NCBI GenBank assembly: GCA_001687465.1
Contig: LVLI01000066.1
Span: 1-64,000, forward strand
Length of the DNA: 64,000 nt
Reading direction: 5' to 3'
Origin: Halocafeteria seosinensis
Taxonomy: Eukaryota
A model generated the notes under the pieces. That model saw nothing but the letters and a program-made list of their open reading frames with translations, searched no databases and was not told where the DNA came from. Both the position numbers and the translations under genes were made by a program. Below are positions 10,536 through 64,000 of the stretch, in pieces. How positions within the stretch are numbered: position 1 is the first letter of the stretch; each line of letters begins with the position of its first letter.

Positions 10536-10763
10536 GACGGCACCGTTTTTACCATGAAATATACAAAAGACAGTTTAACGTGCCTATCATATCAATGTTG
10601 ACTGCGCAATGGACTAAAGCGGCGAGAAAGGAACCTCAATAAGTAAACGACAATCATTTCGTCTACGTGGAGCAGTCCTATTCAGCGTTTCCTACAGCCT
10701 CGGTATTGGGTATGAATTTTTTTTTTTGGCGTAAATAGGATATTAGAGACTACGCAAACAGCT

Positions 10764-36125: not shown

Positions 36126-37065
36126 TCAACTATCTACGTGTATTTCTTTTCCCGCTGGCATTTCGATATACATATCGTTGTACCAGGTTAAAGGTGCCCT
36201 CGGCTCATTCCAATAGCAGAAGTGAGAGTGGAGTTTCCTGCACGACTTGCTCTTTAACACTTGTTTCAAAGGATTATAGGTCGGCAACAAGGAAAGAAGC
36301 GACCTGTGCAACGCTAACTTAATGTACCCATATATATCCTGTGTGTGTGTGTTAGCTCCAGCAACGGGGTGCATCTGTCGGGCTAGTTACTGGAAGGCTA
36401 CCGGTATTCGCTCCTCGGTGGCGTACGCCCCGTAACAGGCGCGTATGACGAATTTCTATCTTAAATTCGCACAACGTATTTGCTAGTCTACTCTAGTACG
36501 CTGGGTATTATACCCGGCCACAAAAATTCTGTGGCTGTAGATGTGCCGGACCACTGTACAACCTTGCGCTTCAGCTGTGAGTTGTTCCTGTCATGTGAGC
36601 TGAAACGTCCCATCATTGATCATTTGCTCTCTTACACCTGATAATGTGAAAAATTACCCTTACCGCACAACTCTGATGGGTTTTTGCTATCTACTGTTCG
36701 ACGGATTCTCGTCTTGTTCCACGCTAATCTGTGCTTGCGATAGGTACGTCGCACTTCGGAGTTGGGCTTCACACCGTGAGGCGCACAGTGAGGTCAGTCA
36801 CCGATTTACGGTGCGTGTTCGGTGTTACGTGGTTCACAGTAGACGTCTATAACAGGCGTTAATAGGTCATTTGTAGTACTAAGTCGGGTTTGCCAGGTGA
36901 CTGTAACTTTCCGCAGTACGTGTATTCTTCGTCAAGTGTAAAGTTTGAGACTTCGTGAATGGTGAGCTGCAACCTGAATACTGTACTTGGCGAACAACCC
37001 TCCACATCACCGCACCGCCTCTCACTTGCTATTGGTGAGGCGATAGCAGTAGCTTTTGTGGAAGA

Positions 37066-38489: not shown

Positions 38490-38670
38490 GTGTGTATTAG
38501 TATTGCTCCTACCGGAAGACGTGGGTATACTGTAGGCTACAGGCTACGTTACGCCGTGTAAGCTTCACGCTGTGGCGCATCAACGTGACTGACAGTTTGA
38601 CCGTCATCAACATGGGAAGTTCCGCTGCCCCAGCGGTAGTCCGGTACTTTCCTGGCAATTCTCTTGAGGA
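38490..38670 (+). repeat. Dispersed repeat homologous to 59291-59620 (secreted-protein gene fragment)
   Basis: Shares TATTGCTCCTACCGGAAGACGTG and GTGGCGCATCAACGTGACTGACAGTTTG-CCGTCATCA with 59306-59433. Confidence 0.8.
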
Positions 38671-38902
38671 ACTTAATTGCAGATGTCCGTATTTTGTCCG
38701 CTTCTGCCGCGATGGTGAGGGTTCTTCGGGCCATAAGTCACATTTCCGTCGTCGAATGAAGGAAGTTACCAGTACTGTCACATGCTGAACCACATAACGA
38801 CCAATGATAATGTCAGATTGTATGTGTGTGGACAGGCGAGCGCTGCAATAGTAGGAAAGAGACAACCGAATGTTGGTTTGAGTACAGTGTAGTGTCGAGA
38901 AG

Positions 38903-44585: not shown

Positions 44586-46671
44586 ATGGCTGCTGCCGGC
44601 GAATCCCAACCGTCGCACACCAAATCCGGTGTATTATCATGGATCCTCTCCAAGATGCCCATGGAGGATGTGCGGCATGATTTGAGCTTGGGGGTGAATG
44701 TCGCCTCGCTGCAGCTGCGTGTGTATCATCAAGTGCAGCATCAGATTTTGCTACCGGATATGCTGGAATGCGCAGCTGATAAGTGGCCTGAGAAGATCGC
44801 ATTAATTGGACTGAATGACGAGCCTTCGAGGAGCGATGCCTCCCAGGAGTATAGCATCAAAGAATTACTGTGGCCGAATACGTGGACGTATCGTCAATGG
44901 GATCAGTACGCAAACCAAGTGGTACGAGTTTGGCCGCTCTGTCGGGGATTCATCGCCCTCTTCACCGTGTTCATTTGATGCTTTGCAGGCACATTTTGCC
45001 ATGTCCAAGTTGCAACTACAAGCGGGGGATAATGTCGCTCTCTTCATGTCGAATGATGTGCAGTTCTTGGGCATATGGCATGGACTCAATAAAGCTGGTG
45101 TATCGGTGGCGCTTGTGAATTCGGGCCTAACGGGCAAGTCTCTGATACACAGCGTCCGTATCGCAGATGCCAGGGCTATTTTATTTTCAGACAAGTTAGA
45201 ATCAGTTGTAGCAGATGTGGAGGAATCACTTCGAGATGCTATGCGGCCGAGTTCACCCGTGGATCATCGGCCATGTGGAACGTTTGTACGAGTACTTACG
45301 AGACATTCGGTCTTGGAAGATACTGGACCACAAATACAAGGAGCGTCGATCCTGCAAAAAGAGATGAAGAACATGCCTTGGCAGAGACCCAATCCTCGCG
45401 TTCGAGAAACAATTGGAGCAAATGATTCTTCGGCATTCATCTATACCTCAGGAACTACCGGGTTACCGAAAGCGGCCCTCGTACCTCATGTAAAATTTCT
45501 CTTGGGTGGAGTTGGATTCTACCGCATTTACAACTTTCGCTCATCGGATAAGATGTATCAGGTGTTACCACTTTTCCACAGCGCGGCTGGTATAATTGGT
45601 CATGGTCTGTGCGTGCTGTGCGGTATCCCCATGGTGATTAGAGAGAAATTCTCCATTCGGAATTGGTGGTCGGATATAGTAGTTCATCAGTGCACAGTGG
45701 CGCAATATATCGGCGAGTTATGCAGATATTTGGTGTCTGCTCCTCCTCATCCTCTCGAATTGGACCAGCCTCCGCATCATAAACTTCGAATGGTGTTTGG
45801 AAACGGCCTTCGACCTGATGTATGGGCGCGATTTCAGAGTCGGTTTGGTATCCCACAAGTGGGAGAATTCTACGGAGCTACTGAAGCAAATACCATGCTA
45901 TTCAATCACTGCACTACAACCCGTGCTCAAGGAGCTGTTGGAACACTTGGACGACTCATTCGCTCCCTCAAAATCATTGAAATCATCAAGTTCGATGACG
46001 ATGAAGAGATGCCAGTACGAGACAAAAACGGCTGGTGTATTCCTTGCCAAACAGGTGAGCCAGGAGAGCTCGTTTCCAAGATTGGTGATGACTCAAGGAA
46101 CAGATTTCATGGCTATAAAGGAAATGAAGAAGCCACGAAGAAGAAAATCCTGTGGAACGTATTTAGGAAAGGGGATGCGTATTTCCGTAGCGGCGACTTG
46201 GTGCGGGTGGACGACTCTGGATATGTCTACTTTGTGGACCGCATTGGTGACACATTCCGATGGAAAGGTGAAAATGTAGCCACAACCGAAGTTGCGTCAG
46301 CAATGGGAGAATATCCTGCGATCGAAGAGGCTAATGTATACGGAGTTCCAGTTCCACATGCTGATGGAAAAGCAGGCATGGCAGCCATTGTGCTAAGTGA
46401 TGGATACCGCCTCGAAGACTTGGACACGAGTGACCTATTCTCCTTCTTAAGGGAACGCTTACCTGCTTATGCTATACCCGTATTTCTAAGGATTCTTCCG
46501 AAACAGCCAATCACTGGAACTTTCAAACAACAGAAAACGCAATTGCGAAAAGAAGGTGCCGATCCAACCACGGTCAAGGACGATCCTCTGTTTGTCCTAG
46601 AGGGCCGGCAATACACTCGATTGGATGAGAAAAAATGGAAGAAGATTTCTGCGGGAGAGGCCAAGTTATAG
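44586..46671 (+). CDS. Fatty-acid transport protein / very-long-chain acyl-CoA synthetase (SLC27/FATP family); exons 44586-44921 and 44989-46671
   Basis: YTSGTTGLPKA, QYIGELCRYL, GNGLRPDVW, EFYGATE, YFRSGDL..YFVDRIGDTFRWKGENVATTEV, TGTFKQQK. Intron GTACGA..TGCAG. C-terminal AKL is PTS1-like. Start codon tentative. Confidence 0.92.
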
Positions 46672-47049: not shown

Positions 47050-48291
47050 ATGGCGGAAGTGGTCCAAGGGGTAGCGAAAAGTGACGTCAGACGCTCCCTG
47101 CATTGGGTGTTCAAAATCGGCAATCTCGGCCGTGCGTTGCGATTTTACAATGAAGTGTTCCACATGAGGGTTCTCCGGAGCGAAGAATTCGCGGAGGGGT
47201 GTGCCGTACGTAGCCGCATAGTTTGTGTGGGGAAAATTCAGCTTACCCTTGTTCTACGCGATGTGGAAGTCTGCAGGCTACCTGTAATGGCCCGTACGCC
47301 GGGCGCTGGAGCAAGACCATGGTGGGGTACGGCCCCGAGAAGGACAATTTCGCGTTCGAGTTGACCTACAACTACGGAGTGGACCACTACGAGAAGGCGG
47401 ATGATTTCCGGTTCATCGCCATTCGTTCGGACGAAACGGAGCAAGAATTCGCCCCGTTCCGACGAGAGTACCAAATTCGGAAAGCCAAAGAACTGGGGTA
47501 CAACGTAATCGAAAATGAGGAAGGAACTTTTATTGAAGGCCCGGATCAGTATTGCTACAAACTAGTGAATACTGCCAAGAAACAGTCACCCGAGGATGAG
47601 CATCCGACTTCCACCAGTGTGCATGAGCCTTGCTTATTCGTCTCGATCTATGTGTCAGATTTGGATAAGAGTCTGAAGTTTTGGAGAGATCGTAAGTGTA
47701 TTCCTGTATGCATAGTCTTAAAAGATATGTGATATGGTTCTGAGTTGCTCTGGTACAGATCTTGGTCTGCGGCAGTTAGATGATGTTGCTGGCAAGACTC
47801 CGGCCACCAAGAAGCATGGCGAAGGTGTAATGCTTGGGTACGATAAATCGCAAACCTTATTAGAGCTTGTTCCCCTTTACGGGGAAGATGGGGAACCAGT
47901 CAGCAAAATCGAGCATGGGAGTGCTTACGGTCGTATCGCCTTTGCTACTCGAAATGGTCCTCAGCCTATTTATGACGAACTGAAGAAGCTGGATTTCGCG
48001 GGTGGTGGAGTCATGAATGATCCTATCACCCTTCAGACTCCAGGGAAAGCCGATGTAGTTGTTACCATACTACAAGACCCAGATGGTTATGAGATTTGCT
48101 ACGTCAATGAGGATGGGTTTTACGACCTCAGTGCAACAAAACCTGCGGACGATTTCATTGACTGGGATTCTCGTGCTTACTACGGCGCCGATGGCAATCC
48201 TCCTCCGAGTGTGAGGCGAAAACAAGAAATCAAAGCACGGAGAGAGAGAGAAGCTCGGGAAAAAGAAGCTGCTGAACAAGAACGTGCATAA
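47050..48291 (+). CDS. GLOD4: Glyoxalase domain-containing protein 4; exons 47050-47205, 47277-47691, 47759-48291
   Basis: RRSLHWVFKIG, EEFAEGC|ATCNGPYAGRWSKTMVGYGPE..FAFELTYNYGV, AYGRIAF, LQTPGKADV.V.ILQDPDGYEIC. Confidence 0.92.
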
Positions 48292-48429
48292 TTTGACGAA
48301 GGTGGGGCGAATACCAGTTTAAGTGAACAATACACTGTTGAATCGTTTATGTGTATCAAGGAACGCGTCGTGTCGAATTTTTTACGCGTTTATCTTCACA
48401 CTTGCGAGAGGGATGAATGGAGATTGCAC

Positions 48430-49068
48430 CTAATTTCCTTTATATTTTGTCCGTTTCTTCATTTCACTCTTCACGTTAACATGACTCTTCTGGCAACATT
48501 TACATTTCCAGCAATTGTGCATCTGTGCCAAATCAAAACCAATATGCGGTATATATGCGGTATGTGTTATGCTCACCAGCATATAGGTGGCAAAAGCACA
48601 AACTGTGCTTCGTGCCAACACTGTTCGACAGGACGAATGATTTCCTCGTCGTTGGGTTCCTTACACCGTCTCCGAAAACGTTTCCGATACTCGAAGTTTA
48701 CAATACCTCGGTCTTCCACTAAGATGCTGCAGTTGTCCCAACTGGCTCTCGCCAGCATTTTCCACAACATCCTTTCAGCAGAAAGAAATGACGTTGTTGT
48801 CTTGAGCATTTTCTAGCAATCCATTGGATGTTAGCCGCAAGCCAAGGTTTTCGTGTTTAAACATTGCTAATGTGAGACTACCGGGGCTCTCCGTAGAACG
48901 TTGGCAATCGGGTCGTCGGAGGCCCCTGGTGAATTCTAAAGGACTTCGGCCACCCAATTCATCGGCAGCATGGATAGACATCCCAATTCTTTGCGCTCCT
49001 ATGAGAACTGTCCAAAGCCATGAACCATTGTTCGCGCAATGTAGTGGTGTCATATTGTTATGGTTCAT
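48430..49068 (-). pseudogene. Degenerate fragment of the NACHT genes' N-terminal domain
   Basis: WTVLIG..SPLEF..FKHENLGLRLTSNGL and YRKRFRRRCKEPNDEEII match WTELIG..CPVEF..KRENYGLRLTSSAL and YRERLRRWCNNPSDEEIL of the NLR-like genes. Split across frames. Confidence 0.8.
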
Positions 49069-49204
49069 TTAAGACACAAGTGATGTTCATTTGATAGAAA
49101 TTACCTGTACGAATTAATGCGTAGTTAAATGCGGACGATACAACTTTAAAAACGTACTGTACTGACGCTCTTCTAACTGACAAGCATAAGGAACAAGTAA
49201 ACGT

Positions 49205-50347
49205 TCACCACTTCCCGGTTATAGCCCGCTCAAATCGGAAAGAATCATATGAAAATTGATCGCATCCAAGCATCTCTAATTTTCGCAATTGAGATAGCTC
49301 AGAAATATGTTGGACGGCATCATCTGTAATGGTGGACTGATTGCACCCTTGCATATCCAATTCGTGTAAGTGGGATAGCTGACCAATATATCGGAAAGCA
49401 AAATTACCAAACGTGGTTTGATTGCATCCTGAAAAATCCAACGTTTGCAACTGGTATAATTCCCCAATATATTCAAACGCATCATCTGTGATAGTGGATT
49501 GATGACACCTGGCCATCCTCAACTTTTTCAAATGGTATAGGCGACCAATATGCTGGAATGCATTGTCTGTAATTGTAGTTTGATTGCACCCTCCCATAAA
49601 CAGTGTTTGTAATTGGGATAGTTGAGCAATGTGTTCAAAAGCTTCATCTGTAATGGTGGATTGACAACACTCTTCCATACACAATTCTTGCAATTGTGAT
49701 AGTTCAGCAATATGTCGGAAAGCATCATCTGTAATACTGGACTGATTGCACTTTTCAAGGTTCAATTTCTGCAATCGGGATAATTGCCCGATATGCCGAA
49801 ACGCATCATCAGTAATGGTGGATTGAGTGCACCATCTCATATCCAATCTTTGCAGTTGGGTCAATTTACCAATATGCCGAAAAGCATCATCAGTAACGGT
49901 GGAGCGGTTGCATAAAGATATATCCAATATTTCAATCCTAACCCCCAGGTTATTGGCATTACCATTCTCTGGTATCGAGCTGGATGCATCCACGTTGTCG
50001 CTAGACTGATGGTGACGATGATGATCAGTCTCACCTTCCACTCTGGCTGCTTGGGAGATACTAGAGACTGTTGAGTATGAAGGCAGTGCTTTGAATAGAT
50101 TGTCTACAATAGTCTTCGCATTCACCTCAACCATATGGACTCTATTCTGGAGTTGTGGATGAACAATATGTTCAGTTAGCTCACAAGGAAGTGAAACGAG
50201 GTTATCCAGACGAGCTATCCACTTCGGTTGGATTCTTAGCATATGCTGCCCGTTTATGGTCGTTTTCGTAGGCATGACAAAGTTGATACATTCCGGAGAG
50301 TCCACTACACAAGCCGCATGAAGAGGTAAGAGTCCCGATAAAGAAGT
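49205..50347 (-). CDS. C-terminal ankyrin + LRR module (nine 27-aa repeats), in frame with the upstream NACHT ORF beyond a single TGA
   Basis: Reads TSLSGLLPLHAACVVDSPECINFVM (ankyrin core), then a cap, then LQxLxMxxCNQSTITDDAFxHIGxLSx repeats. The tracked ORF start at 50305 is GTG. Confidence 0.8.
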   Translation of the reverse strand, partial: TSLSGLLPLHAACVVDSPECINFVMPTKTTINGQHMLRIQPKWIARLDNLVSLPCELTEHIVHPQLQNRVHMVEVNAKTIVDNLFKALPSYSTVSSISQAARVEGETDHHRHHQSSDNVDASSSIPENGNANNLGVRIEILDISLCNRSTVTDDAFRHIGKLTQLQRLDMRWCTQSTITDDAFRHIGQLSRLQKLNLEKCNQSSITDDAFRHIAELSQLQELCMEECCQSTITDEAFEHIAQLSQLQTLFMGGCNQTTITDNAFQHIGRLYHLKKLRMARCHQSTITDDAFEYIGELYQLQTLDFSGCNQTTFGNFAFRYIGQLSHLHELDMQGCNQSTITDDAVQHISELSQLRKLEMLGCDQFSYDSFRFERAITGKW

Positions 50348-53300
50348 TCAAGAAACATCGTCTTCATCAGATGCTAGCTGCTTTAGGCAATTTACATTTC
50401 CGCTCAAGGCTGCTGCAAACACAACAGTCTCACCTTCGTCCGAGACTTCGCTCGCACTAGCTTCATAGTCTCTTAACAAAGATGCTACTAATTCGGCATG
50501 GCCATTCAAAGCCGCCAAAAACAATAAAGAATAATGTTCCTGTTGCGTGAACAATCGAAGGGGCTGCACATGCAGTTTGCCTACCAAGCTTTCAAGAACA
50601 TGCTGCGAGCCGTGCTTTGCAGCTAGGATTATGTGCTCTTCGCTCAATCCAACAAACTCGCGAGAAAAACTCTCCGAACAGCAGGACGCAATTGTTTCCA
50701 AGCAACGTGCTGCATTTGCTGTGACCGCATCATTGATAGTTAGGTTGGCCACGTAAGGCGTGGCAACGATTGCCTGCTTCAGTTCCGTCTCACTGAGTAA
50801 TGTTTTCACACAGCATCCACTGTCTTTTTCTAAACAAAACCGGAAGCAATGTAAAATAAACTCCTGCATATTCAATTCGTTCGCTTTACAAGTCATATCC
50901 TTCCATTGCTCTACATGGAGCAATTCGGCTAGACAGTTTCCACTGTCTTGCTCTAAACATTCTTGGAAACAGTAACTGACTAACCCTTCGAGAGAGTATC
51001 CCCTATGCTCACATAATAAACTCCTCCATTGAGTTGCACTCAACAATTCTAAGAGGCAGTTTCCGCTGTCTTTTCTTAAGCATAAGTGAGCGCAATAAGT
51101 GATGAACTCCTCAAGAGAACATCTCTCCTCTTCGCAGAGTAGACGTCTCCATTGAGTTATACTCAGTAATTCTACAAGGCACTTCCCGCCGTTTTTCTTT
51201 AAACATAGCTGAAAGCAGTGAGTAATGAACTCGTCTAGGGAATAACCCTGGTGTTCACACAGCAGGCATCTCCATTGAGTTGTGTTCAGCAGTTCAACGA
51301 AGCACTTCCCACGATCTTGCTCTAGGCATAGGTGGAAGCAGTAAGAAATGAGCCCTTCCTCAGATGCGTACCCTATGTTCCGACAAAGAAACGTTCTCCA
51401 TTTCTCTGTGCTCAACAAATGAGCGAATCCTTTGCCCTTATCTTCATCTATACACCACTGAAAGCAAATCTGAATGAACTCCGCTTCACTGGATTCCACC
51501 CGGTGACAAAGCCATTGTCTCCATTCGTCTACATTAAGCAATTCCTCAAGACACTTCGCCCTATCTACATCTATCGACAGCTGGAAGCAATGAAAGACGA
51601 AGTCGTCCATATTGCACCCCTCTCGTTGACACAACAGATTGGCCCATTGCTTTGTACTGAGTAAAGCCCCAAGACAATGCCCGCTATCACCCTCCAGGCA
51701 CATTTGGAAACAAAGGTTGACAAAATCCTCCCTGCTCAGCTGCCCATCCTGATAGAGCGGTTCTGTACATGGCGTCTGAGAAAGTAAATATTCGAAAATT
51801 GCACCTCGATCAAATCGAATGGATTCCTGGATTAACTCTGCATCTAAGTCCTCTTCGCTGCAAAGGCGTTTCACGCACTTTAGCTGGCCCGTTCGCACTG
51901 CTGCTCTCAGAGGCCCGAGAGTCAGGCATTTATCATCCCGGAGGGGCACCTTCGTTTGCTCCAGAGCGTCCACGCAGTCCATGTGCCCTAAACTGATGGC
52001 TAAAACATAAGGTGTGAGTTCCGTCTCTTCCTCAACGGACAGCTCCTGGTCCAGCCAGCATCCTATCTCGTATTCTTGTGCCGGACAGACTTCCTCGAAG
52101 ACTAACTTTATACATTGATAAGGTAGCACCTCATCGATAGCTGCATTGCACGTATACAATGGTAGTATTGTGTTTGGCCTGTTCAATGCAACAGCAGCCC
52201 ATACAGGGGAGTAACAGGTTTTTTCACCCTTCCTTGAAAACTGCAAGCTAACATCTTTTCCGCTATCGTTGAGCATATACAGGTGGTCCAAATTTTCGTC
52301 CTGCAGCGCTTGCAATAATTCTTCAAAGCAATTCAAATCGCATTTAGCGAAATTTACGCTCTCTCTTGGATCCAATGACACCCCCAGAAGCTGTGCTGTT
52401 GCTTCTCCAATATCGCCGTCACACCAAATCAAGAGGGACGACAGGGAGTAGCTGCAATTGTGTTGCCCGGCAACTTCCATGGATTGTCGCTTGATATGTG
52501 CACATGTTTCTGACGGTTTATCGAAAGCCAGTAACAACTGCAGACACGATGCACAACCATCTCGCGATGCAATGTATATAGCTGACCAGGCAAGGTCACG
52601 CATCAAATGAAAATTAGTTTCTAGGGTATTCAAAAGAGTTCGACAACAGTCAAAGCGTTTTCCTGTGACAGCTCCAGTAAGCGCAATTTGGTGCAGCGAC
52701 ACTTGGTTCACGGACCGTTCGGATTCATCTTTGCTCGTCTCTAAAATCCAGCGAATAAGACGGTAGCTACCGACTTCTCCCGCCGAGAAAAGCAGACGCT
52801 TAACTTCGGGTGTACTAGACGCGATTGCACTCAACGATAACTGTTTCAAACGGCTAGGCTCTACTTCCAATAGGACTTGAACAAACCTGATACGCCCATT
52901 CAGCTCCGTAACAAGTGAGCTGTATAAACAGATCAGAAGACGTGTGGTCTCCTCTACCGATTGCTCTTCACTGAAGGCGCTAACGAAGAACTCCAGAAAT
53001 CTGTCTCCAAAGCGTAAGCCCTCATTGATCACGTCTTCTATCTGGGAAGTACCAATAGTGTTAAATCGTCGACGAGCAAGGAAGTACTCCCAGTACGACC
53101 GGTGAATAAACTCGTAAGTTTGTTTCTCATCTCCTGTGGGAGAGACTACTTGCATTAATCCGACACCCTCGAAAAACTCACTCGCTTCGCGTATTGCTTT
53201 CAACGGTCCTCGAAAGTCTTTGCGATGATTCTCAAATGCTTGTCGTAACACCTTCAGCGGAACCTGTTTATCCGAACAGACGTCATCTCTCTCTAGGTGA

Positions 53301-56300
53301 GAAGCTACCTCCTCCAGGATCGTCAAAGCAACCTCATGGGGATCATTATCTGCACGGACTGTGTGTGACCTCCACCATTTCTCCAATAGATGGTCCACTG
53401 TTCGACTATAGATCGGAGTCACACGGACGTCTTCTGCCGTGGATTCAAAGAAGCTACCTCCGCTCTTCACATACGCAAAACAAATTCCTTCAAGAAGAGT
53501 TGGATTAGCGCTTAAAGCATTCAGTCGATCATTGAGTCGGAAAGACAATTGTAGAGTCCGACAGAGCCTCGAATAATCACTTCTATCAGAATAACATTCC
53601 AAAGCGTAGTGCTCAATGAAACTCTTGCGAGCCTCAGAAGTAAGCCCCTCCACCTCTACAAAATAGCCGATATACTTATTGACCAACGGAATCCCATTGC
53701 GATGACTTGCTGTATGACTTGAGAATCGCGATGATACGAAAACGAAGGCTTCCATCTGTCGAAGTACTGAGAAAATTCTCCCACCGGCAGCTCCAGGTTC
53801 GAATGGATTATTTCGTACTTCATCACATCCATCTAGGAGAAAAAGAACACTGGGTCGTTTGTCGCGCAAGTGTTGCACAATTCTTATGGCTTCATCCGTG
53901 GTGATATTTCGTGCGGCAACATTGTCATCGAAGGTTTCCTTAAGATTCACGAAGCTCTTGGAGAGGAGCATCCCCAAACAAGTCTCTCCGTCAGCGTCTG
54001 GGTAATGTTTTTCCACATGTACCAGATGATACAGTTGAAGATATATTACCCAACTGAAACTATCTTTCAACACGCGACCTATTTCGTTTTCCTCCGAATT
54101 CCCAAGAGACCACGACTGGGCAAAATGCTTGAAGAGTGTGGTTTTCCCAACGCCTGCTTGCCCTTCGAAGAGGATCCACTTCCTCCTGGAATTTGAGAGC
54201 GCAAATAAATCTCTCGCTTCCACCTCGCGCTTTCTTCCCGACGCTCCAGAGTGTTTGTCCCGCAGTGTCAATTTCTGATAGCACCTATTCAATTTTGGTC
54301 GCTTGGTTAGGTCCACAGCTTCATCTTCACGGTGTCGGAAAAGTCGATGGAGTCTCCAACTTCGATAAAGCATATACAAATTATCTCGCTTATACAATGG
54401 GGGCAATTTGTTCCAGTTAAATTTCACTGTCGAAGTTGTTCGCGAAAACGTAAGTAAACGATCGTGTATAATTCCCGCATGAACTCGTCTACTACACTCA
54501 ATTTGAAACTTGAACGGGACAGAAACGGTGTCGTCGGCGCTAGAGTAGAGAGAGGTTTCCGTGGGACGCAGACTGTGCTGTTCTGGGCGTCGAAGTAACT
54601 GTCCCATGGAAACTCGGTGGGCAGCGGTAGAACAGAATTTCACCGGACTGTCATCACACAATACAACAAAAATATCTAACATTGGGACAACATCCCTCCA
54701 AAATTGTTGTTCGTCTACCGACCATATTGGATTCCTGAAGAAATTGCTTTCTACAGATTCTATGACGGGGAAACTCAGCTTTCCCTCAGGAGCGAGAACT
54801 TCGCGAAGAATTTCTTCATCACTGGGATTGTTACACCACCGACGTAAGCGCTCGCGATATTCCGCCTGCTGGAAGACACGCTGGTCCTTCGAAGGAGCGG
54901 ACAGTTGGCAGTACTGCAAATTGTCGCTCAATTGTTTCATGTAGAATCGGTTTCGCAATCCAATAACAGCCTTCAAATAGAACTCAACAGTTCCACCCTC
55001 AAGACCATAGCCTTCCACTAACGCACTCGAAGTGAGCCGGAGACCGTAGTTTTCCCTTTTAAGTGTCTCTAAGTTGAGATGTCGTCGGCCGCGCAGGGCT
55101 CGCCGGCGATCAGGCTCCCCGTTTCGCTGGGCGGTAAATTCGACTGGGCAATCGTTTTCCGATTGACAGGCATGCAGAGAAATTTGAATACTCTCCTCGC
55201 CTATTAGTTCGGTCCACGGATTTACTAGTATATTTCCTGTAGAATACCATGGATTATTCGCAGGCTCATTTACTATATCACTCCAGTGCATGTCTACGGA
55301 AATAAAATCCGGGTCAATCTGAGCTTCAGCATAGTTCAGAGACAAAGACAAGGGAGGGTCTCTCAGTCTAACAGTATTTGCCGTATAAAATGGTGACGAG
55401 GCTATCTTCTTGCACCACTTGCGGAAAGTATCACGCTTTAAATTTAGGGATGCACTTGGCTCCAGCTCTTTCGGCGATATCACTTTACCCAAGCAAAACA
55501 CGCTTCGGCACCAGCCCTTCCTCTTAATCACAAACTGCTGCCGATCTTGCAGCCTTGTTTCGTGACCCACTTCATGTATTTCTGGTGGATCACCGCGGCC
55601 ATTCTCCAATGCCGAAGCGAACCAAAGTGCAAAGCGGCTTAGGTCAGCCGTTATACCCTCCTCTCTTAACCAAAGGCAAAGATGGCGGGCTTTATGCCCC
55701 CATTTACGAAAATAAGAAAAGACAGACACGTAAGAACATTCTTGTTCGGACCAGATAACTAGAAGTTGAGAATTGGCTTCAATATACTGACGCAGCAATT
55801 CTGGACGGTAATCACTGGGAGAGTGCAAAGAATTCGGGTCCGAATGAGCATACGCAGTGGAATCTAAGTCCAGTTTTCTCGCTACGCGATACGAGAAAGG
55901 GTCCTCTTTGCGAAACTGATAGGTTACACAGGTTTTCCATAACCAGCGTCCAAGAATTCCTAAGAAGCCGCTTCCTCCTATCATACCCAACACCCAGTTC
56001 GCCCAATTCGGCAAGGATGATGTTTCAATCAGATGCCTTCTATGCACTGAAGCAAATCCCTCTGGCACAGCCTTCTCCATAGGATGAGAAACAGAATGGC
56101 GTAGAAATTGCGACTGTGTCCTCCAGGAACCCGAGGACTGCTCTTCCAGTTGAGGGATATCCGGTGGTGTCGTATCCTCCGTCCCACCGGCCGCAACGGA
56201 TATGACCACCGCAACAAGCACGATAATAATTAATATCAACTCAGGTACTAATGCTTCGCTTCTCATCCTCTCTGCCGGCTTTGTTGTTATATATGCTGAC

Positions 56301-56326
56301 CGTGGGAAAACGATGGTTGTCCTCAT
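50348..56326 (-). CDS. NLR-like STAND NTPase 1: signal peptide, TM helix, unknown domain, NACHT, ankyrin-like and 41-aa repeats
   Basis: Walker A GQAGVGKT (~54163-54140), Walker B LFLLDGCDE, sensor FVSSR, EVEGL, NPTLL, WHD YEFIHRSYWEYFLA, ankyrin cores (TPYVLAISLGHMDCV, LFLAALNGHAELV). First ATG 56326, alternative 56266. Intronless. Confidence 0.88.
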   Translation of the reverse strand: MRTTIVFPRSAYITTKPAERMRSEALVPELILIIIVLVAVVISVAAGGTEDTTPPDIPQLEEQSSGSWRTQSQFLRHSVSHPMEKAVPEGFASVHRRHLIETSSLPNWANWVLGMIGGSGFLGILGRWLWKTCVTYQFRKEDPFSYRVARKLDLDSTAYAHSDPNSLHSPSDYRPELLRQYIEANSQLLVIWSEQECSYVSVFSYFRKWGHKARHLCLWLREEGITADLSRFALWFASALENGRGDPPEIHEVGHETRLQDRQQFVIKRKGWCRSVFCLGKVISPKELEPSASLNLKRDTFRKWCKKIASSPFYTANTVRLRDPPLSLSLNYAEAQIDPDFISVDMHWSDIVNEPANNPWYSTGNILVNPWTELIGEESIQISLHACQSENDCPVEFTAQRNGEPDRRRALRGRRHLNLETLKRENYGLRLTSSALVEGYGLEGGTVEFYLKAVIGLRNRFYMKQLSDNLQYCQLSAPSKDQRVFQQAEYRERLRRWCNNPSDEEILREVLAPEGKLSFPVIESVESNFFRNPIWSVDEQQFWRDVVPMLDIFVVLCDDSPVKFCSTAAHRVSMGQLLRRPEQHSLRPTETSLYSSADDTVSVPFKFQIECSRRVHAGIIHDRLLTFSRTTSTVKFNWNKLPPLYKRDNLYMLYRSWRLHRLFRHREDEAVDLTKRPKLNRCYQKLTLRDKHSGASGRKREVEARDLFALSNSRRKWILFEGQAGVGKTTLFKHFAQSWSLGNSEENEIGRVLKDSFSWVIYLQLYHLVHVEKHYPDADGETCLGMLLSKSFVNLKETFDDNVAARNITTDEAIRIVQHLRDKRPSVLFLLDGCDEVRNNPFEPGAAGGRIFSVLRQMEAFVFVSSRFSSHTASHRNGIPLVNKYIGYFVEVEGLTSEARKSFIEHYALECYSDRSDYSRLCRTLQLSFRLNDRLNALSANPTLLEGICFAYVKSGGSFFESTAEDVRVTPIYSRTVDHLLEKWWRSHTVRADNDPHEVALTILEEVASHLERDDVCSDKQVPLKVLRQAFENHRKDFRGPLKAIREASEFFEGVGLMQVVSPTGDEKQTYEFIHRSYWEYFLARRRFNTIGTSQIEDVINEGLRFGDRFLEFFVSAFSEEQSVEETTRLLICLYSSLVTELNGRIRFVQVLLEVEPSRLKQLSLSAIASSTPEVKRLLFSAGEVGSYRLIRWILETSKDESERSVNQVSLHQIALTGAVTGKRFDCCRTLLNTLETNFHLMRDLAWSAIYIASRDGCASCLQLLLAFDKPSETCAHIKRQSMEVAGQHNCSYSLSSLLIWCDGDIGEATAQLLGVSLDPRESVNFAKCDLNCFEELLQALQDENLDHLYMLNDSGKDVSLQFSRKGEKTCYSPVWAAVALNRPNTILPLYTCNAAIDEVLPYQCIKLVFEEVCPAQEYEIGCWLDQELSVEEETELTPYVLAISLGHMDCVDALEQTKVPLRDDKCLTLGPLRAAVRTGQLKCVKRLCSEEDLDAELIQESIRFDRGAIFEYLLSQTPCTEPLYQDGQLSREDFVNLCFQMCLEGDSGHCLGALLSTKQWANLLCQREGCNMDDFVFHCFQLSIDVDRAKCLEELLNVDEWRQWLCHRVESSEAEFIQICFQWCIDEDKGKGFAHLLSTEKWRTFLCRNIGYASEEGLISYCFHLCLEQDRGKCFVELLNTTQWRCLLCEHQGYSLDEFITHCFQLCLKKNGGKCLVELLSITQWRRLLCEEERCSLEEFITYCAHLCLRKDSGNCLLELLSATQWRSLLCEHRGYSLEGLVSYCFQECLEQDSGNCLAELLHVEQWKDMTCKANELNMQEFILHCFRFCLEKDSGCCVKTLLSETELKQAIVATPYVANLTINDAVTANAARCLETIASCCSESFSREFVGLSEEHIILAAKHGSQHVLESLVGKLHVQPLRLFTQQEHYSLLFLAALNGHAELVASLLRDYEASASEVSDEGETVVFAAALSGNVNCLKQLASDEDDVS
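50792..51709 (-). repeat. About 7.5 tandem 41-aa (123-bp) Cys/Trp-rich repeats inside NLR 1
   Basis: Consensus FQxCLxxDxGxCLxELLxxxQWRxLLCxxxGYSLEEFIxxC; period 123 nt (51337 vs 51214). Confidence 0.9.
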
Positions 56327-57305
56327 GATGCTCTCCCGCACGTCCGGTGAACTGGCTTGCTTGGCGATCGCGTAGGAAGCGCAAGAGATGAACGTAGGAT
56401 TTGCTTATTCTCTCCTTCGAAATGATGATGTTTCTCCTTTCTTTGGTGTCTTCGAGACACAAAGATACTTTCTCGGCTTTCTGTCTGGAAGGACACGGTC
56501 GGCTCGGCTTCGTTCACGAAGAGAGAAATATATTACCGTATAGACTGCAGTCAACAAAGAAGCAAGAACATGACGATGATCCCGATACGAGACTTTTGCT
56601 GTAATGGATGGACCAACTAGTTCTAATACATGCAGACAGACAAGCCCGCTCCCTGTGAATCACTGCGAGTCTGCGACGCGCACTGCAGTCTGCGGAATCC
56701 CAGCAGCGCCGCGACGCGGCGACGCCCCACCGCGTCTATGGGTACGTCTACATTGCGCCTCGAGGCGAAGTGCTGTAAATATGAGCCCCGTCCGGTTTTC
56801 TGTACGGACTCGCTTTGACAAATAGCGCTGCGGTTTCTCAGGAATTCCGAGTAGAAACCATTCGCACGACTGAATAGGAGAGAGCTACCGCTGGATACTT
56901 TCCTTGATCGACCCAGTTGTAGAGAAACCTCCGTACAACTGCCAACGTATCTCTTACAGTCGCTTTGAGTCAACGATGGTCGGTAACTGTTAGCATCCTA
57001 CCTACATCTGGATAGAAGGCGAATGATTGCGTTGTGGTGGCTGCTCCGATGTGGTACAGCACCCTCCACTGATATGGCGGTAACCCCCAGGCTGCGGGGC
57101 CTTGGCAACGCATAACAGTAGTCAGCGTGGTAAATACAGTGAGTCTGGTATGCATCTGGAATGCTCCATTGTTCAGAAAGACTTCGATTGTATTTGTCTC
57201 TGAAGGAATGCCGATTTCTGGGCAATCTTCACAGTGGTGCAATGCGCTTGTTGCTCTTCTATATTTCGGGCAACCCCTTAAGTACAGTTTAGAGGTCGGA
57301 ACACC

Positions 57306-58881
57306 TCAATAGTGGCATTGTCTGCTGCCTAGTTCTACGGATTTTGTGTTACCGCGGGTGACGTATGCTGTCAGGGGGTTATTCGTTGGATACGTGGTTT
57401 TTTCCTCATCCGTTTGGTTTCCGCTGACCCCACTGTCATCGTCATTGCTTGCCATTCTATTTCTGAGCACCATGGCAATTCCGATAGCAGCGGCGATTGC
57501 TAATGCCGCTGTAAGTCCGATACGACTTGACCCGATACTCTTTTCCTTATTGGATCGGTATATAGACAAAAGTCCGTAGTACTCCGTACTACTACCGCTG
57601 AACCGGTAGAATCCTGAACGGACAAGGCATACCGACCTTCACTATCAGTTTCGAAGCCTCTGCCAGAGAAGGCGGAAATCCGTGCATGTTAATGGTGGCC
57701 GATTATGTCTCAGTGCATTATTTGTAGGACGTACGTTCCCACAAACTCTTCACATCCAGCAGGAAAGTTAGATAGCACATTCCCTTTCTGACAAATACTA
57801 ACGGGACCTCCATTTTCGTCCAGGGTCTCCAGATTTATCGGAATACATCTTTCTTCAGAGCTGCTCGACACACTCCATACTTACCTGTGTTTCGTCAGAT
57901 TTACTCGGGTATGGTTCCTTTGTCTTATCATCTCTCACGGGAGACTCATCTGACATCATGATGAGCGCCGGTATCACCATTACGACTGTCGTCGTCTTGA
58001 GTAGTTCTCTGTGGGACCTCTCGGCTGGATGGGACGGAAGCATATTCTAACAGATACAGAACAGCTTAGCTTTCGGCGACACGCATTGCGAACTTACGCT
58101 CCACATCGAACGTCGTGGACGGCACCTCGGCACCGCCATTTTGGCAAGAACCTTCTTCGATTTGGACCTTCTCTTGTTTGAACTTAGAAAGATACAAGAC
58201 GTTGCGCCAGATGACGTTGCGACTTCCACGGTGTACCACGTAATACCGTTGTACGTATACGACCCTTTAAATCTGCCTACTTGTTTCACAGCGACATAGA
58301 GTATATCTTGAACCGTGTTCGAACGCTTCCGTACCAGACTTTGAATCAATTTATGGAAAGTGAATGAGTAAAGTAAAGTACATTTACCTTAGCAGTTACA
58401 TTTCAAATTGTGTCTCCTACGGTGAAATCTCAGTGCCAGATACTATATCGTAACGATCATTCAACTCTCCCGATCTAGTGTCGTATCCGACAGACAGAGA
58501 ATTTGTGTCCTAGAGGACATGCCAACGACGTGTGGCGTTGCGCAACCAAGCCTACAAGGCTGACTGAGTACCAGCGCTACCTGAATCAATTTATGGAAAG
58601 TGAATGAGCAATGTAGAGTACATTTACCTTAGCAGTTACTGTTCAAATTGTGTCTTATACGGTGCAATCTCAGTGCCATGCTATATCGTAACGATCATTC
58701 AACTCTCCCGATCTAGTGTCGTATCCGACAGACAGAGAATCTGTGACATAGAGGACATGCCAACGACCTGCGGCGTTGTGTAACCAAGCCTACCAGACTG
58801 AGCGCTACCTCGACCAGATGGTAACTCTGAACGCACTGCACTGCAAGGATGACTTTCAACTTTGCTTACGGTAAAACGCAC
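57306..58881 (-). pseudogene. Degenerate multi-exon gene for a probable type-I membrane protein between the two NLR-like genes
   Basis: C-terminal TM IGLTAALAIAAAIGIAMVL followed by RNR and a short tail. Splice donors CAG|GTAAGT (~57884) and AAG|GTAAAT (58387, 58627). Upstream frames carry stops and frameshifts. Boundaries uncertain. Confidence 0.4.
58342..58810. repeat. Tandem duplication, 240-bp period
   Basis: TGAATCAATTTATGGAAAGTGAATGAG starts at 58342 and 58582; both copies end in AGCGCTACC. Each contains a minus-strand exon plus short-intron unit. Confidence 0.95.
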
Positions 58882-59290
58882 TTCATCAGCTTACGTCGCG
58901 TGGTCGACCAGTACGAAGGGTATGCACAAGTTTTGAAGAAGTACTGTAGTTAGATGGGTGCGGAATCTGCACTGCAGATTTAAATCTCGCCCAGGCCTGC
59001 GCAACCAGCAATCATTGACATCCACTAATCACGTTAAAACATTGCCCATATACATATAGTATGCCGACAGTGAATCGTGATCTGACCGGCAACGGCCACG
59101 ACCGGCGGGGCCAAGCTCAGTGACCAGTGGTCACCAGCGGCAGCGGCGGCAGTGGTTCACACAGTTTACCACGCCGGAAGATACTGTATTGTCCGTCCGA
59201 CTGAATGTGTTGGAACTGGTACATACGTACATACATACAGCCATTCCCTACAGTCTCATCCTCATCTTGTTCTTTTACCATTACTGTACA

Positions 59291-59620
59291 CCGTCATCAT
59301 ATATATATTGCTCCTACCGGAAGACGTGTCTGCTGCAGGCTACGCTAAGCCGTGTGAGGGGTGAACCCTACCCGGAACCGGTCCAATATCACGTGGTGGC
59401 GCATCAACGTGACTGACAGTTTGGCCGTCATCAGCTTGCGGATCATCTGGTGTGTATTGGTATTGCTTCTACCGGAAGACGTGTCTGCTGCCGTGTGCGG
59501 GGTGAACCCTACCCGGAACCGGTCCAACATCTTCTGGTGGCATCGTACAAGTACAAGCTGTACAAGTACAGTATAGTTCTCGCTCGCGTGGTGTATTTCT
59601 CCAGGGAAAGCTCTCCGAAG
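59291..59620 (+). repeat. Local tandem duplication (~135-155 bp unit) of a signal-peptide-encoding fragment; third copy at 38490
   Basis: CTACCGGAAGACGTGTCTGCTGC and GGGGTGAACCCTACCCGGAACCGGTCCAA each occur twice; encodes ..YILLLPEDVSA|A..NPTRNRSNITWWRINVTDSL. Confidence 0.85.
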
Positions 59621-59818
59621 GCCACGCCAGGAGACAGTGGAACTGGGTCTCCCCCACAACACATACACTCAAGTCTTTTCATTCCACGCGAAGAAACCAA
59701 GGGGAAGGGGCCCCCATCCCGCTTCGTGGAGCCTGTATAGGCGACTGGAGCCACCAAACAAGAAGCTAAAGAATCAACATTCTCGAGAGGGAGAACAGTT
59801 ACGTTTCTAAGCATTGTA

Positions 59819-62800
59819 ATGGTCACTGATAGCACCGAGAGTCGATTAAGAATGGAGAAGAGAGTATCCTCGGTATACAAATCGATGCTGGTTTGCATCG
59901 TAGCTTTGCTTGTGGCAAGTGGTATCTCCTCAGCCATGGCCACGGCAGCAGAAGACGAGGATATCCAGGAAGAGCAGCTATTCATGAGTTCCTACTCCCG
60001 ACCACCAACTTATTTTCTTCGACATTCCATTCCTCCTCGAGAGGAGAAGAAGCAACAACATGCGCCAGTGCATAGACGAAATCTGATTGAAACGTCAGCT
60101 CTGCCAACTTGGGCGAACTGGCTGCTTGGCGCCCTCGGCGGAAGTGGCTCTGTCGGTTTGGTAATCTTGTGGATATGGAAATCCTGTTTAAAGTATCAGT
60201 TTCGGAAAGAAGATCCTTTCTCATATCGTGTGGCCACGGAACTGGATTTGGACTCGACCACTTATGCTCCTTCCAATCCGGATGCCCAGCGCTCTCCCAA
60301 TGAATACCGTCCAGATCTGTTAGTCCAATATCTTCGAGCCAATCTACAATTGTTGGTGATTTGGTCCAGAAAAGAGGGTTCAAGTATATCTTTGTTTGAT
60401 TATTTTCGTAAATATGGAGATGACGCGCGTCATCTTTGTCTCTGTTTCGGGAAGAAGGGCACAACGGCTGATCTAAGCCACTTCGCATCTGCGTTCGCGA
60501 CTGCATTGAAGAATGGTCAAGGTGACCCACTTGAGATGCATGAAGCAAGTACGGACACAAGGCTTCAAGGACGGCAGCAGTTTGTCCTGAAACGGAAAGG
60601 GTGCTGTCGAAGGATGTTTTGCTTGGGTAAACTCATTTCACCGGAAGAACTACAGCCGCGGGCATCTCCAACGTTGAAGCGTGACGTTTTCCTCCGATTT
60701 TGCAAACTGATAGCCACATCGCCCGATCACTCGGTAAGTACAGCTAAATTGAGGGATCCTCCTTTGTCAATATATCTAGACTGTACTGACACTGAAATGG
60801 ACCCGGATTTTATTCCTGTGGACATTGCGTGGAGGGGTATGAACGACCTCTCCAAGAATCCGTGGGAAAACATGGGAAGTCCCTTACTGATCAATCCGTG
60901 GACCGTCCTGCTAGGTGACGAAAACATTCAAATCTCTTTGTATGCCTACCATTCGGAGGAAAACTGCCCCATTGAATTTGCTACCAAGAGGAACGGGCAA
61001 CCTGATAGGCAACGTGTCACTTCCGGCCAAAGTCATCTTAACTTGGCGACATTTAAGAGAGAAAGCTGGGGTCTGCGGCTCACTTCGAGTGCACTAGTCG
61101 AGAGACATGGTATTGAGAATGGAAACATCGTCTTCCATCTGAAGGCCACAATTCAGAATCGCGAAGAATTCCAGCTTAAGCAACTAAGCGAAAATTTATC
61201 GTACTGCACACTACCGGCTCCGTCAATGGATCGACTTGTCTTCAAGCAGGCGCAATATCGTGAACGCTTTCGACGCTGGTGTAACGATTCCAGTGATGAA
61301 GCAATTCTTCAGGCAATCCACGCTCCTCGATTAAAGTTGAATATCCCTACCATCGAGTCTGTAAATAGCAATCTCTTAACGGATCCAATAGGGTGGGCAG
61401 ATAAGAATGAAAAGCTGTTCTGGACCGGTATCGTTCCATTGTCAGACATGTTTGTTCTGTTTTGTGACGATAGTCCAGTTGAATTCTGCGATGCAAGCAC
61501 CAATCGAGTTCCTATAGAGCGACTAGTTCAATGCCCGGAGGAGTACAGTTTGCGTCCTACCGAGTCCTCTTTATACACCGTCGACAGCGTATCTGCTCCG
61601 TTCAAGATTCAGCTTGAATGCAATGACCAAGTTCATTCCGAAATAAGACAACGGAAGTCATTCACGGTTGGTCAGAGCAGCGTTAACGTAATATTTGACT
61701 GGAGTAAGCTACCTCCTCTATATAAGTGGGATGAGCTTACTCTGCTCTATCGAAGTTGGAGACTTCACCGTCTCTTTGGGCAGCAGACAGATGAGGCTGC
61801 ACACCCAGTCAAGCGACCGAAATTGAATAAATGCTATCAAAAGTTGACACTACGAGACAAGTACTCTAACAAAACGTCAGGGGAAGGGATCCAGACGAAG
61901 AATTTATTTTCCCTGTCAAATCCCAACAGGAAGTGGATTCTCTTCGAAGGAGAAGCAGGAGTTGGGAAGACCACCTTATTCAAGCATTTTGCTCAGTCAT
62001 GGTCTCTCGAAGAGACCGAGGGTAATGAGATAGGTGAGGTGATGAAGGATAAGTTCACGTGGGTACTATATCTTCAAATGCATCATTTGATACATGTAGA
62101 AAATGAGTACGCGAAAGCTGATGGGGATACATGCTTGGGGATTCTTCTCTCCAAGAGCTTCATGAAGCTTAAGGAAACCTTTAGCGACGAGGTTGCTGCG
62201 TGCGATATTACCGCGCAGCAAGCAGCGTAAACAGAGTGATATTCTTTTCCTCCTGGATGGGTGCGACGAAGTAAAAACTAATCCATTTGAACTTGGTTCA
62301 CTCGGTGGGAGAATGTTTTCCGTTCTTCGCCAAATGGGAGTGTTCGTTTTTGTATCGTCGCGATTCTCGAGTCATACGGCGAGTCGTCAGGATGGTATCC
62401 CCTTAGTTAACAGGTACTTTAGCTCTTTTGTAGTGGTGGAGGGACTCACACCGGAGGCTCGCAAACTTTTTGTGGAACAATATGCTCAAGAACGTTATCC
62501 AGACAGCAGAGGTAACCAACTGCATCTTTCCCAGACACTGCAGCTCTCCTTCCGGCTCAACGATCGGCTTGACTATCTCGGTGCTAATCCGACGCTCCTG
62601 GAAGCGATATGTTTTGTATATGTAGAGAGCTCAGGAAGCTTCTTTGAATCTACAAAGAAGGACATTCGCATCACGCCAATTTACGCTCGGACTGTGAAAC
62701 ATTTGGTGCACAAATGGTCGACGATATCATGCTCGTCTTCACCCGACGATGATCCCCTTGACGTGTCACTAAAAATGTTAGAGGATGTAGCCTTACGACT

Positions 62801-64000
62801 GGACGAAGATGGAGAAAATCTTCATGAGGAGAACGTTTCCACTGATAAAGACGTGTCTCTACATCGTTTGCAAAAGATCTTTGCAAAGTATCGCGAGGAA
62901 TTTCGGGGACCACTAAAGTCTGTAGAGCGGGTGACCGAGTTTTTCGAGCGTGTTGGTCTGTTGAGGATTGTGTGCCGCACGGGTGACGCAGATCAAACCT
63001 ATGAATTCATTCATCGTTCTTACTGGGAATATTTTGTGGCTCTAGGGGAATTTAGAAAGAGTAAGTCTCGCCCCGCCAGATACCTTATTCAATCTGAGTC
63101 TCGACTTTGGGATCGGGTTTTCGACTTCTACGTCAGCATATTTAGCGAACAGCAAAACATTAACACTATTACTGATTTGCTTCATAGCTTACATGGTTTG
63201 CTATGTGGGGAGCATGTATCCGGTTGTACACCAGATCAAGGCCCCCATCGGTTCACCGAACTTTTACTTGAAGTGCATCCAGATAAATTGGAAAAAGTAT
63301 CGCTTCACATGATAATGTCGGCTTCAGACGAAATACGATCGCTTTTGTTTTATGCAGGTGAAATAGGCAGTTTTCGTCTTGTTAGCTGGATCCTAGCTCA
63401 GACTGCTCAGCGTAACTATCAATGTGGCGAGAAGGAAACCTATAGCGAGCAAAGAGCACTTGTCCAAGTTGCACTCGCGGGATCTTCGAAAGGAGGACGA
63501 TCTGCTTGTTGCCGAAGGATACTGGATACCATGGATACTGATTTTTATCGGGTTGAGGAAACTTCGTGGTCAGCTATTTACATAGCATCGCGAGAAGCTA
63601 GTGCCCCGGGAGCTGCCGCATGTTTGCAGTTGCTACTGGCTGAAGCTAAGCTGTCCGAAACCCCGGAGTTTATTAAACAGGAATCTATGAAAATCGCAGG
63701 AGAACGGAGTCACGAACGTTGCGTCGCCCTGTTCTTAATCTGGTGTGACGGTGTTGTAGGTGAAGTCGCTGCACAAGTATTGGGTGACGCCTGGATGTCG
63801 ATGGCCCCACAAAAAAGAATAAATGCCGCAAAGAGTGAACTTAATTGTTTTGAAGAGTTAGTACAAGCGTTGCAACGGGATGATGTGGAACGACTTTACG
63901 CACTCAATGATGGCGGAAAGGATGTAAGCTTACAGTTCTCTCGAAAGGGACATGAGAATTGCTATTCTCCCGTATGGATTGCTGTGATATTAGACAGACC
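59819..64000 (+). pseudogene. NLR-like STAND NTPase 2, paralog of NLR 1, with one frameshift at ~62227; runs off the window
   Basis: ORF 59819-62230 is collinear with NLR 1 through Walker A (GEAGVGKT, 61949-61972). A second frame from 62226 (RKQSDILFLLDGCDEV..NPTLL..YEFIHRSYWEYF..CYSPVW) is stop-free to 64000 by manual translation. May be a recent pseudogene, an allele, or an assembly error. Confidence 0.85.

Follow-up and report, generated by a model that had tools for sequence, protein, structure and literature searches.

Here we describe a head-to-head pair of genes, A and B, in the genome of the halophilic bicosoecid Halocafeteria seosinensis, located at the end of a stretch of 64,000 nucleotides (the window; contig LVLI01000066.1, positions 1 to 64,000, of assembly GCA_001687465.1). 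We read them as diverged copies within a lineage-specific family of NACHT-ankyrin-leucine-rich repeat (LRR) proteins, produced by an old local inverted duplication, probably present on one haplotype only and probably broken recently, and we predict that the intact protein acts as a defence sensor anchored in a membrane; we place the probability of this combined reading at roughly 60%. Its components differ in strength, the origin by inverted duplication being likely and the immune role being proposed by analogy. Receptors of the NLR type (nucleotide-binding proteins with leucine-rich repeats) have been investigated in plants, animals, fungi and bacteria, but free-living protists have received scarcely any attention. 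The family described here unites a predicted membrane anchor, an N-terminal region that is a candidate effector, and a stack of three repeat types. Its turnover, which resembles that of defence genes, is visible within one diploid cell line.

Gene A (49205..56326, minus strand) is an intronless frame of 2,373 codons, running from its ATG at 56326 to 49205 with one internal TGA, and is covered by both DNA-like and RNA-like contigs. Gene B, its paralogue (59819..64000, plus strand), continues beyond the window end and appears as two open reading frames (ORFs), ORF1 at 59819-62230 (803 aa) and ORF2 at 62166-63998. The visible part amounts to about 58% of the length of A, the last ~1,000 codons lying outside the window, and a contig of run X1 over B extends 624 nt beyond the edge. 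The contigs derive from four sequencing runs of a single study: X1 is unspliced and DNA-like, whereas X2-X4 are spliced and were judged RNA-like because GT-AG joints are present there and not in X1. An earlier note, made from the letters of the window, had described collinear, well-diverged paralogues arranged head to head across ~3.5 kb, and this description holds. The divergent ATGs, at 56326 (minus) and 59819 (plus), are 3,492 nt apart (spacer, 56327..59818), and B aligns with A at 56% identity over codons 4-813 in one frame and at 53% over codons 823-1383 in another. A and B are 55-57% identical to each other and 36-45% identical to a third paralogue; by identity, they are each other's closest known paralogues.

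The NLR-like identity proposed in the earlier note is borne out by a NACHT domain above the family cut-off, by its core motifs, and by ankyrin and LRR arrays. The NACHT module of A (52997..54229, minus strand) contains Walker A, Walker B, sensor-1 and a winged-helix FIHxSYxEY motif, and matches Pfam NACHT (PF05729) over aa 718-907 at E=2.9e-12 (47.2 bits, cut-off 26.7). Its best sequence match in the PDB is NLRC4 (E=0.0044), with the P-loop and His motif aligned. The two halves of B yield NACHT pieces of 22.4 and 18.1 bits, both below the cut-off because the domain is split; P0003, a related fragment from the protein collection, scores 43.3 bits, above the cut-off, and Walker A, Walker B, the sensor-1 Arg and the winged-helix His motif are kept in A, B and P0003. 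The NB-ARC family reaches 12.7 bits (E=0.076, cut-off 23.5), and no TIR or coiled-coil (CC) family in Pfam matched.

Read from the N-terminus, A consists of a first hydrophobic segment, a dibasic motif, a second hydrophobic segment, ~570 residues, NACHT, ankyrins, eight 41-aa repeats, further ankyrins and nine LRRs. Superstructure-forming C-terminal repeats, ankyrins and LRRs, occur in A and in the transcript-derived protein P0002, and B shows only the start of this region in the window. In Pfam, Ank_2 matches A at E=1.6e-19, and LRR families are matched in the ORF behind the stop. The eight tandem ~41-aa repeats (50756..51739, minus strand; 123-nt spacing) are Cys/Trp-rich and helical-looking, their best Pfam match (E=0.0043) falling below the cut-off. 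The nine 27-aa LRRs (49208..49936, minus strand) lie behind the stop, with variation concentrated at positions 3, 5, 7 and 8. The CxQxTITDxAF-type repeat of gene A also occurs in three LRR loci that stand alone elsewhere in the window, at 29923-31794 (minus), 35450-36135 (plus) and 1913-2506 (plus; tblastn E from 4e-46 to 3e-21 for the set), and an X1 depth of 164-248 over 29.3-31.3 kb indicates near-identical copies elsewhere.

Membrane segments were called by Kyte-Doolittle hydropathy alone, at a threshold of 1.6. Segment 1 of A (aa ~29-46; 56189..56242, minus strand) is a predicted signal peptide or signal anchor, peaking at 3.09 in A and at 2.3 in B and staying below the threshold in P0001, the partner of P0002. 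Segment 2 (aa 108-130; 55937..56005, minus strand) is a predicted transmembrane helix that passes the threshold in B (1.73) and P0001 (1.98), and a dibasic RR motif before it is common to A and B. Because no other hydrophobic segment exceeds the threshold, NACHT and the region preceding it are predicted to be cytosolic, and the protein to be anchored in a membrane.

Between the membrane segments and NACHT lies the ~570-aa N-terminal region, in which AlphaFold predicts two beta-sandwich modules. The model, built from six sequences, has a mean predicted local distance difference test (pLDDT) of 61, a first model having reached 50.5. Module 1 (aa ~326-455; 54962..55351, minus strand) finds only matches of Z ~4. 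The best fold match of module 2 (aa ~511-640; 54407..54796, minus strand) is a cadherin-like repeat of CSPG4, with VIA Z values of 6.7 and 6.5 that lie under VIA's caution level of Z 8 (root-mean-square deviation 3.8-4.4, 112-125 aligned residues, next row 4.8). Foldseek returned no match for either model at E up to 0.001, and none of the Pfam cadherin families matched the modules at E up to 10; the likeness to CSPG4 is offered as a lead only. The ESM Atlas gave no usable match for aa 130-700 or 98-315, and a possible resemblance to ZU5/UPA domains found no support.

A search of 1.84 billion representative proteins returned 20 matches at E 0.001, 5 of them below 1e-10. P0001 and P0002 are adjacent GECG transcripts that jointly tile the third paralogue, whose sequence breaks off at Walker B and resumes beyond it; we infer that the two represent one gene. 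A fatty-acyl-CoA ligase encoded nearby differs from gb/GECG01012118 (EukProt) at 3 positions in ~560 residues, counted from residue 59 on, and this near-identity to a GECG record identifies the source of P0001 and P0002 as the same species. Repeat numbers differ between the paralogues, with eight 41-aa repeats in A and one in P0002, and ~9 and 16 LRRs, respectively. A tree of 15 rows groups A and B with the joined P0001/P0002 and with P0003 in a single clade (support 100/99) that has no supported sister outside it; P0004 and P0005, which have no NACHT, and P0016-P0019, with a matched stretch of less than 250 aa, were left out. P0003-P0005 are fragments, P0003 being 33-34% identical to A, and possibly come from a sister lineage; together with P0025, an orthologue of the ligase that is 78% identical to the one in the window, P0003 suggests that such a lineage has been sequenced.

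A remnant of a third member, matching the N-terminal region with one stop and one frame change, lies at 48615..49014 (minus strand; tblastn E=2e-14 with B and 2e-12 with A). The share of four-fold sites that differ between A and B rises from 0.47 to 0.70 near A codon ~869 (permutation p=0.003), a contrast suggesting that the inner (5') halves of the inverted duplicates once exchanged sequence. Other searches were negative within their scope: a word-index protein search found 0 of 6,186 candidates for A residues 90-1100 and 0 of 6,965 for B residues 80-803, a sensitivity-limited result since relatives exist; no exact match was found for 10 window proteins in the protein collection; and scans for the locus found it in 0 of 36 and 0 of 592 metagenome stretches and in 0 of 139 prokaryote genomes. 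A scan of viral loci gave 2 hits among 86; on inspection, both encode unrelated proteins of the P-loop type, an ABC-like protein in one case and a small ATPase in the other.

Each gene had been credited with exactly one visible lesion, and this proved accurate, in the case of B for the visible ~58%. In A, the only internal stop is an in-frame TGA at codon 1993 (50348-50350, minus strand), within an ankyrin repeat of the last ankyrin block; the aligned residue of P0002 is Gln. In B, the lesion is a net 23-nt deletion relative to A (62224..62240, plus strand), between Walker A and Walker B and just ahead of the latter, as the DNA alignment shows; the first frame ends at the TAA at 62228-62230. 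Since A and P0001 are of equal length in this segment, it is B that lost the 23 nt. Both lesions recur unchanged in X1 contigs with 0 differences from the window (10,205 nt over A and 4,481 nt over B), X1 possibly being the sample from which the window was assembled, and two of the three RNA-like runs, X2 and X4, likewise carry the TGA of A in contigs that cross it unspliced. Neither lesion is an assembly slip. Three ways of restoring the frames were considered: an intron excising the TGA of A is ruled out by the unspliced X2 and X4 contigs, an intron repairing B is unlikely since B is already shorter than A at that point, and a +1 shift at the stop of B would leave 7-8 residues missing.

The breaks are likely recent compared with the genes that carry them. 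Over 1,353 aligned codons, dN/dS (the ratio of nonsynonymous to synonymous divergence) between A and B is 0.21 (95% bootstrap interval 0.17-0.26), with dS above 1; every segment ahead of the frameshift gives 0.24-0.29, and beyond codon 823 dS is saturated, so that values there are upper-type estimates only. The ratio thus indicates purifying selection and is far from the value near 1 that the earlier note had named as the mark of decay. In simulations of neutral decay (300 runs each, substitutions only), A at 1% divergence stayed free of further stops with a probability of 0.04 and B at 2% with one of 0.013, and 47-84 stops would be expected at a neutral divergence of 0.5, where one lesion per gene is observed. 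It follows from the simulations, together with dS and dN/dS, that both genes were conserved for almost the whole time since their duplication, and a simple decaying inverted duplication is excluded by the ratio and by the single lesion in each gene. By the simulations, the breaks are likely about as young as the allelic differences within this strain. P0002 reads from ankyrins to LRRs without a stop, and the long frame is therefore ancestral. As for the present state of the two genes, B is likely null because its frame stops ahead of Walker B, and the likely product of A, 1,992 aa long and lacking the LRRs, may either be inactive or retain function as a NACHT-ankyrin protein.

The remnant, A, the spacer and B together form a block of half depth in X1 contigs (48268..63998). 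From 48268 on, long X1 contigs have depths of 60.3 and 54.5 and show 0 differences in 14,686 nt, whereas flanking single-copy stretches have depths of 84-113; X1 allele bubbles run at 44-60. The eight upstream X1 contigs listed carry 59 differences in ~16,900 nt, with depths of 84-113 except for one at 164 beside an LRR gene. A second X1 contig, of depth 58.1, diverges at 48298-48321. No alternative allele of the block at an identity of at least 85% was found in X1, apart from a short piece over 52121-52142 whose depth is the same as that of the B contig and which fits a continuation of B. Because half depth coincides with a lack of heterozygosity, the block is likely hemizygous or faces a very divergent allele. 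Highly divergent alleles under balancing selection may lie behind these features, observed in one study and on one haplotype. With the decayed third copy and the split third paralogue, the half-depth block agrees with the birth-and-death turnover suggested in the earlier note.

On expression, which the earlier note had raised for both genes, RNA cover was found for A, in unstranded contigs. In X2, a 5,236-nt contig covers 48434-53669, with smaller pieces reaching up to and past the start of A, and X3 and X4 contribute scattered pieces; sense transcription of A is likely. Cover of B in X2-X4 is almost nil (one bin at 0.54) and was not used as evidence. At 48147-49758, 1.6-kb contigs of X3 and X4, at a depth of ~135, run from the end of the glyoxalase gene through the remnant into the LRR end of A, and possibly represent a long 3' extension antisense to A.

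A mechanism for the intact protein can be proposed entirely from NLR biology. The signal peptide and transmembrane helix would place the protein in a membrane with the remainder in the cytosol, and the ankyrin, 41-aa and LRR arrays would keep the NACHT ATPase in its closed state as long as they have bound no ligand, foreign or altered-self. NACHT would then oligomerise, and the resulting clustering of the N-terminal region could trigger signalling or cell killing. Gene clusters, pseudogenes and presence/absence variation of the kind seen here are likewise described for the NB-ARC-TPR and ROCO genes of Ectocarpus (PMC3341825) and for Podospora NLRs (PMC13449251).

Several observations weigh against our reading. 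All three near-complete members are interrupted, with no intact member among those seen, and no more than ~15 codons separate two of the three breaks, a closeness that random loss explains poorly. The N-terminal region matches no known effector in Pfam, NCBIfam, PADLOC, the PDB or the Atlas, the structural comparisons resting on low-confidence models, and segment 2 falls short of the hydropathy threshold in A itself. The LRR face, with pN of 0.48-0.69 against pS of 0.60, lends no support to positive selection, and the tree leaves the sisterhood of A and B inside the clade unsettled. Contig depth is a crude measure, drawn from runs of the same study throughout, and, the RNA contigs being unstranded, the cover of A could reflect read-through, in antisense, from the convergent glyoxalase gene, whose own cover is high.

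The clustering of the breaks leads to one rival explanation, in which they are functional: membrane-anchored N-terminal halves ending before Walker B, in B and in P0001/P0002, would inhibit or decoy intact copies or be substrates for recoding, and read-through of the TGA would switch A between NACHT-ankyrin and NACHT-ankyrin-LRR forms. Besides the interruption of every near-complete member, this is favoured by the positions of the breaks (A codon ~814-822 in B, an end at ~829 in P0001), by frames that are open and conserved on either side of each break, and by the presence of the TGA in RNA-like contigs. However, the breaks of B and P0001 are unlike in place and kind, a +1 shift in B would give no normal NACHT, since its helix ahead of Walker B is 7-8 residues short, and the open frames follow equally from recency. 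CTA is a stop-codon read-through motif, and the context of the TGA differs from it; selenocysteine is unlikely because P0002 has Gln, not Cys, at that position. P0001 and P0002, moreover, are known from transcripts alone, and their break may be a transcript-assembly error. We regard functional breaks as unlikely, and we are as doubtful of a co-dependent sensor/helper pair of the plant kind, sharing a promoter and inactivated in both partners on this haplotype. A head-to-head arrangement across a few kilobases is found in validated pairs, certain plant pairs are described as arising through duplication (PMC9528088), the breakage of both genes would fit co-dependence, and the repeat end of B, beyond the window, could carry an extra domain. 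Against this, the domains are identical and the motifs intact over the visible part, with no integrated domain across A codons 4-1383, and the greater likeness of the 5' halves at four-fold sites fits exchange between inverted duplicates. Most plant pairs combine different clades in the account cited (PMC9528088), a criterion with exceptions, whereas A and B belong to the same clade (100/99). The analogy with RPS4/RRS1 and RGA4/RGA5 drawn in the earlier note is thus not supported for these close paralogues, which have the same visible domains, keep all ATPase motifs and show no extra domain in the visible part.

Somewhat less probable again is an allorecognition or mating-type-like locus, in which the other haplotype would carry a very divergent allele and unlike alleles would cause incompatibility. 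Half depth without an alternative allele of at least 85% identity across the block would fit such a locus, as would predicted membrane anchoring, and fungal het genes include NACHT NLRs (PMC10197012), but the predicted ectodomain is tiny, loss or gain explains hemizygosity equally well, and cell fusion is not on record here for this organism. We give slightly less weight still to a non-immune signalling family, for instance a stress or trafficking sensor, that expands and decays in a repeat-rich region. The N-terminal region without a known effector domain and the repeats in the spacer would be compatible with it, but variation in repeat number, the variable LRR face, presence on one haplotype and frequent breaks resemble defence genes elsewhere. 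It is very improbable that the layout is a false assembly join made through a high-copy repeat, with A and B unlinked or allelic on opposite haplotypes. The stretch 59335-59518 is bridged by none of the contigs listed and both genes have half depth, but a chance join among what depth indicates are hundreds of copies would rarely hit the closest paralogue in inverted orientation, and the window contains no N.

The repeat concerned consists of two partial copies of a dispersed, high-copy element at 59306..59541, 277 nt upstream of B, with a summed X1 depth of ~9,000 in its bin and 17,000-21,000 at single places. It is crossed by no listed contig and is possibly an unclassified SINE- or MITE-like element (short interspersed or miniature inverted-repeat transposable element); Rfam gave no match to it and zero matches to the spacer as a whole. 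The spacer also contains a 240-nt tandem duplication (58342-58801), its copies 91% identical, with no further copy in the window. The same dispersed-repeat family recurs at 38490-38609, within a stretch (38490-38727) of very high summed depth in X1 and the RNA-like runs. A 461-codon frame (37039-38424, plus), which contains a long mucin-like tract of Ser/Thr/Pro and has no match in Pfam, ends at this repeat. Closer to A lie genes for an E2F/DP-family protein (39282-41315, minus), the fatty-acyl-CoA ligase (44815-46671, plus) and a glyoxalase-domain protein (47214-48291, plus), with GT-AG introns of 63-173 nt. Further upstream, a 4,468-codon open frame (14725-28131, minus) looks by eye like a dynein heavy chain and converges on an importin-like frame of 1,334 codons with HEAT repeats (10716-14720). 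The GC content of the window is 46.9%; the genome preprint reports 46.8% for a diploid genome with 19% repeats (10.64898/2026.06.25.734631).

Neither this architecture nor NLRs in bicosoecids turned up in a search of the main texts of open-licence papers; gene tables in supplements may list such genes. The word 'NACHT' is absent from the main texts of PMC4987115, PMC5447177 and the virophage preprint, and the family goes unmentioned in the part of the genome preprint covered here (10.64898/2026.06.25.734631). What appears new is the predicted membrane-anchored NACHT-ankyrin-LRR architecture; fungi are already known to have fast-turnover NACHT-repeat proteins (PMC13449251, PMC10197012). A new module for signalling or killing may reside in the N-terminal region. 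A more far-reaching proposal, to which we assign a low probability, is that this free-living unicellular stramenopile has an immune or non-self system of its own, built on membrane-anchored NLRs whose effector region is new and whose loci are haplotype-specific, with conserved breaks that tune activity, N-terminal halves restraining intact copies and read-through adding or removing the LRR sensor. Halocafeteria is described as culturable, with a chromosome-scale genome and endogenous virophages (10.64898/2026.06.25.734631; 10.64898/2026.07.28.741278), which would make NLR-triggered defence in unicellular grazers directly testable.

Comparison with known systems places the family among NACHT-type NLRs while setting it apart from each of them. 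The plant pairs RRS1/RPS4, RGA4/RGA5 and Pik-1/Pik-2 share the head-to-head layout and a spacer of a few kilobases, but are described as combining NB-ARC with TIR or CC, mostly across different clades and with an integrated domain in one partner (PMC9528088). The NB-ARC-TPR and ROCO genes of Ectocarpus also belong to a stramenopile and share the clustering of genes with pseudogenes, a high rate of birth and death, and repeat variation; they differ in having NB-ARC/TPR or ROC-COR, one exon per repeat, and a multicellular algal host, whereas A is an intronless NACHT/ankyrin/LRR gene of a single-celled grazer (PMC3341825). In choanoflagellates, also unicellular eukaryotes, single proteins likewise combine NACHT with LRR and lack CARD and Death domains, although a membrane anchor, ankyrins and haplotype restriction are unreported in the portion of that source used here (PMC6040629). 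Anthozoan transmembrane NLRs, likened here by description, combine NACHT-LRR with N-terminal membrane segments, but have 3-5 clustered helices (PMC5094078), where A and B, from a unicellular stramenopile, have 1-2 hydrophobic segments together with ankyrins and an N-terminal region that is long and unrelated. Podospora NLRs share strain-level pseudogenes and presence/absence variation (PMC13449251). With NACHT-type NLRs at large (animal NLRC4/NLRP, fungal NACHT-ankyrin and NWD/het proteins), A and B have in common the P-loop, Walker B, the winged-helix His motif and C-terminal repeat arrays, and they are distinguished by the predicted signal peptide with one membrane helix, by ~570 N-terminal residues that match no known effector, by the stacking of ankyrins, 41-aa repeats and LRRs, and by a clade of their own.

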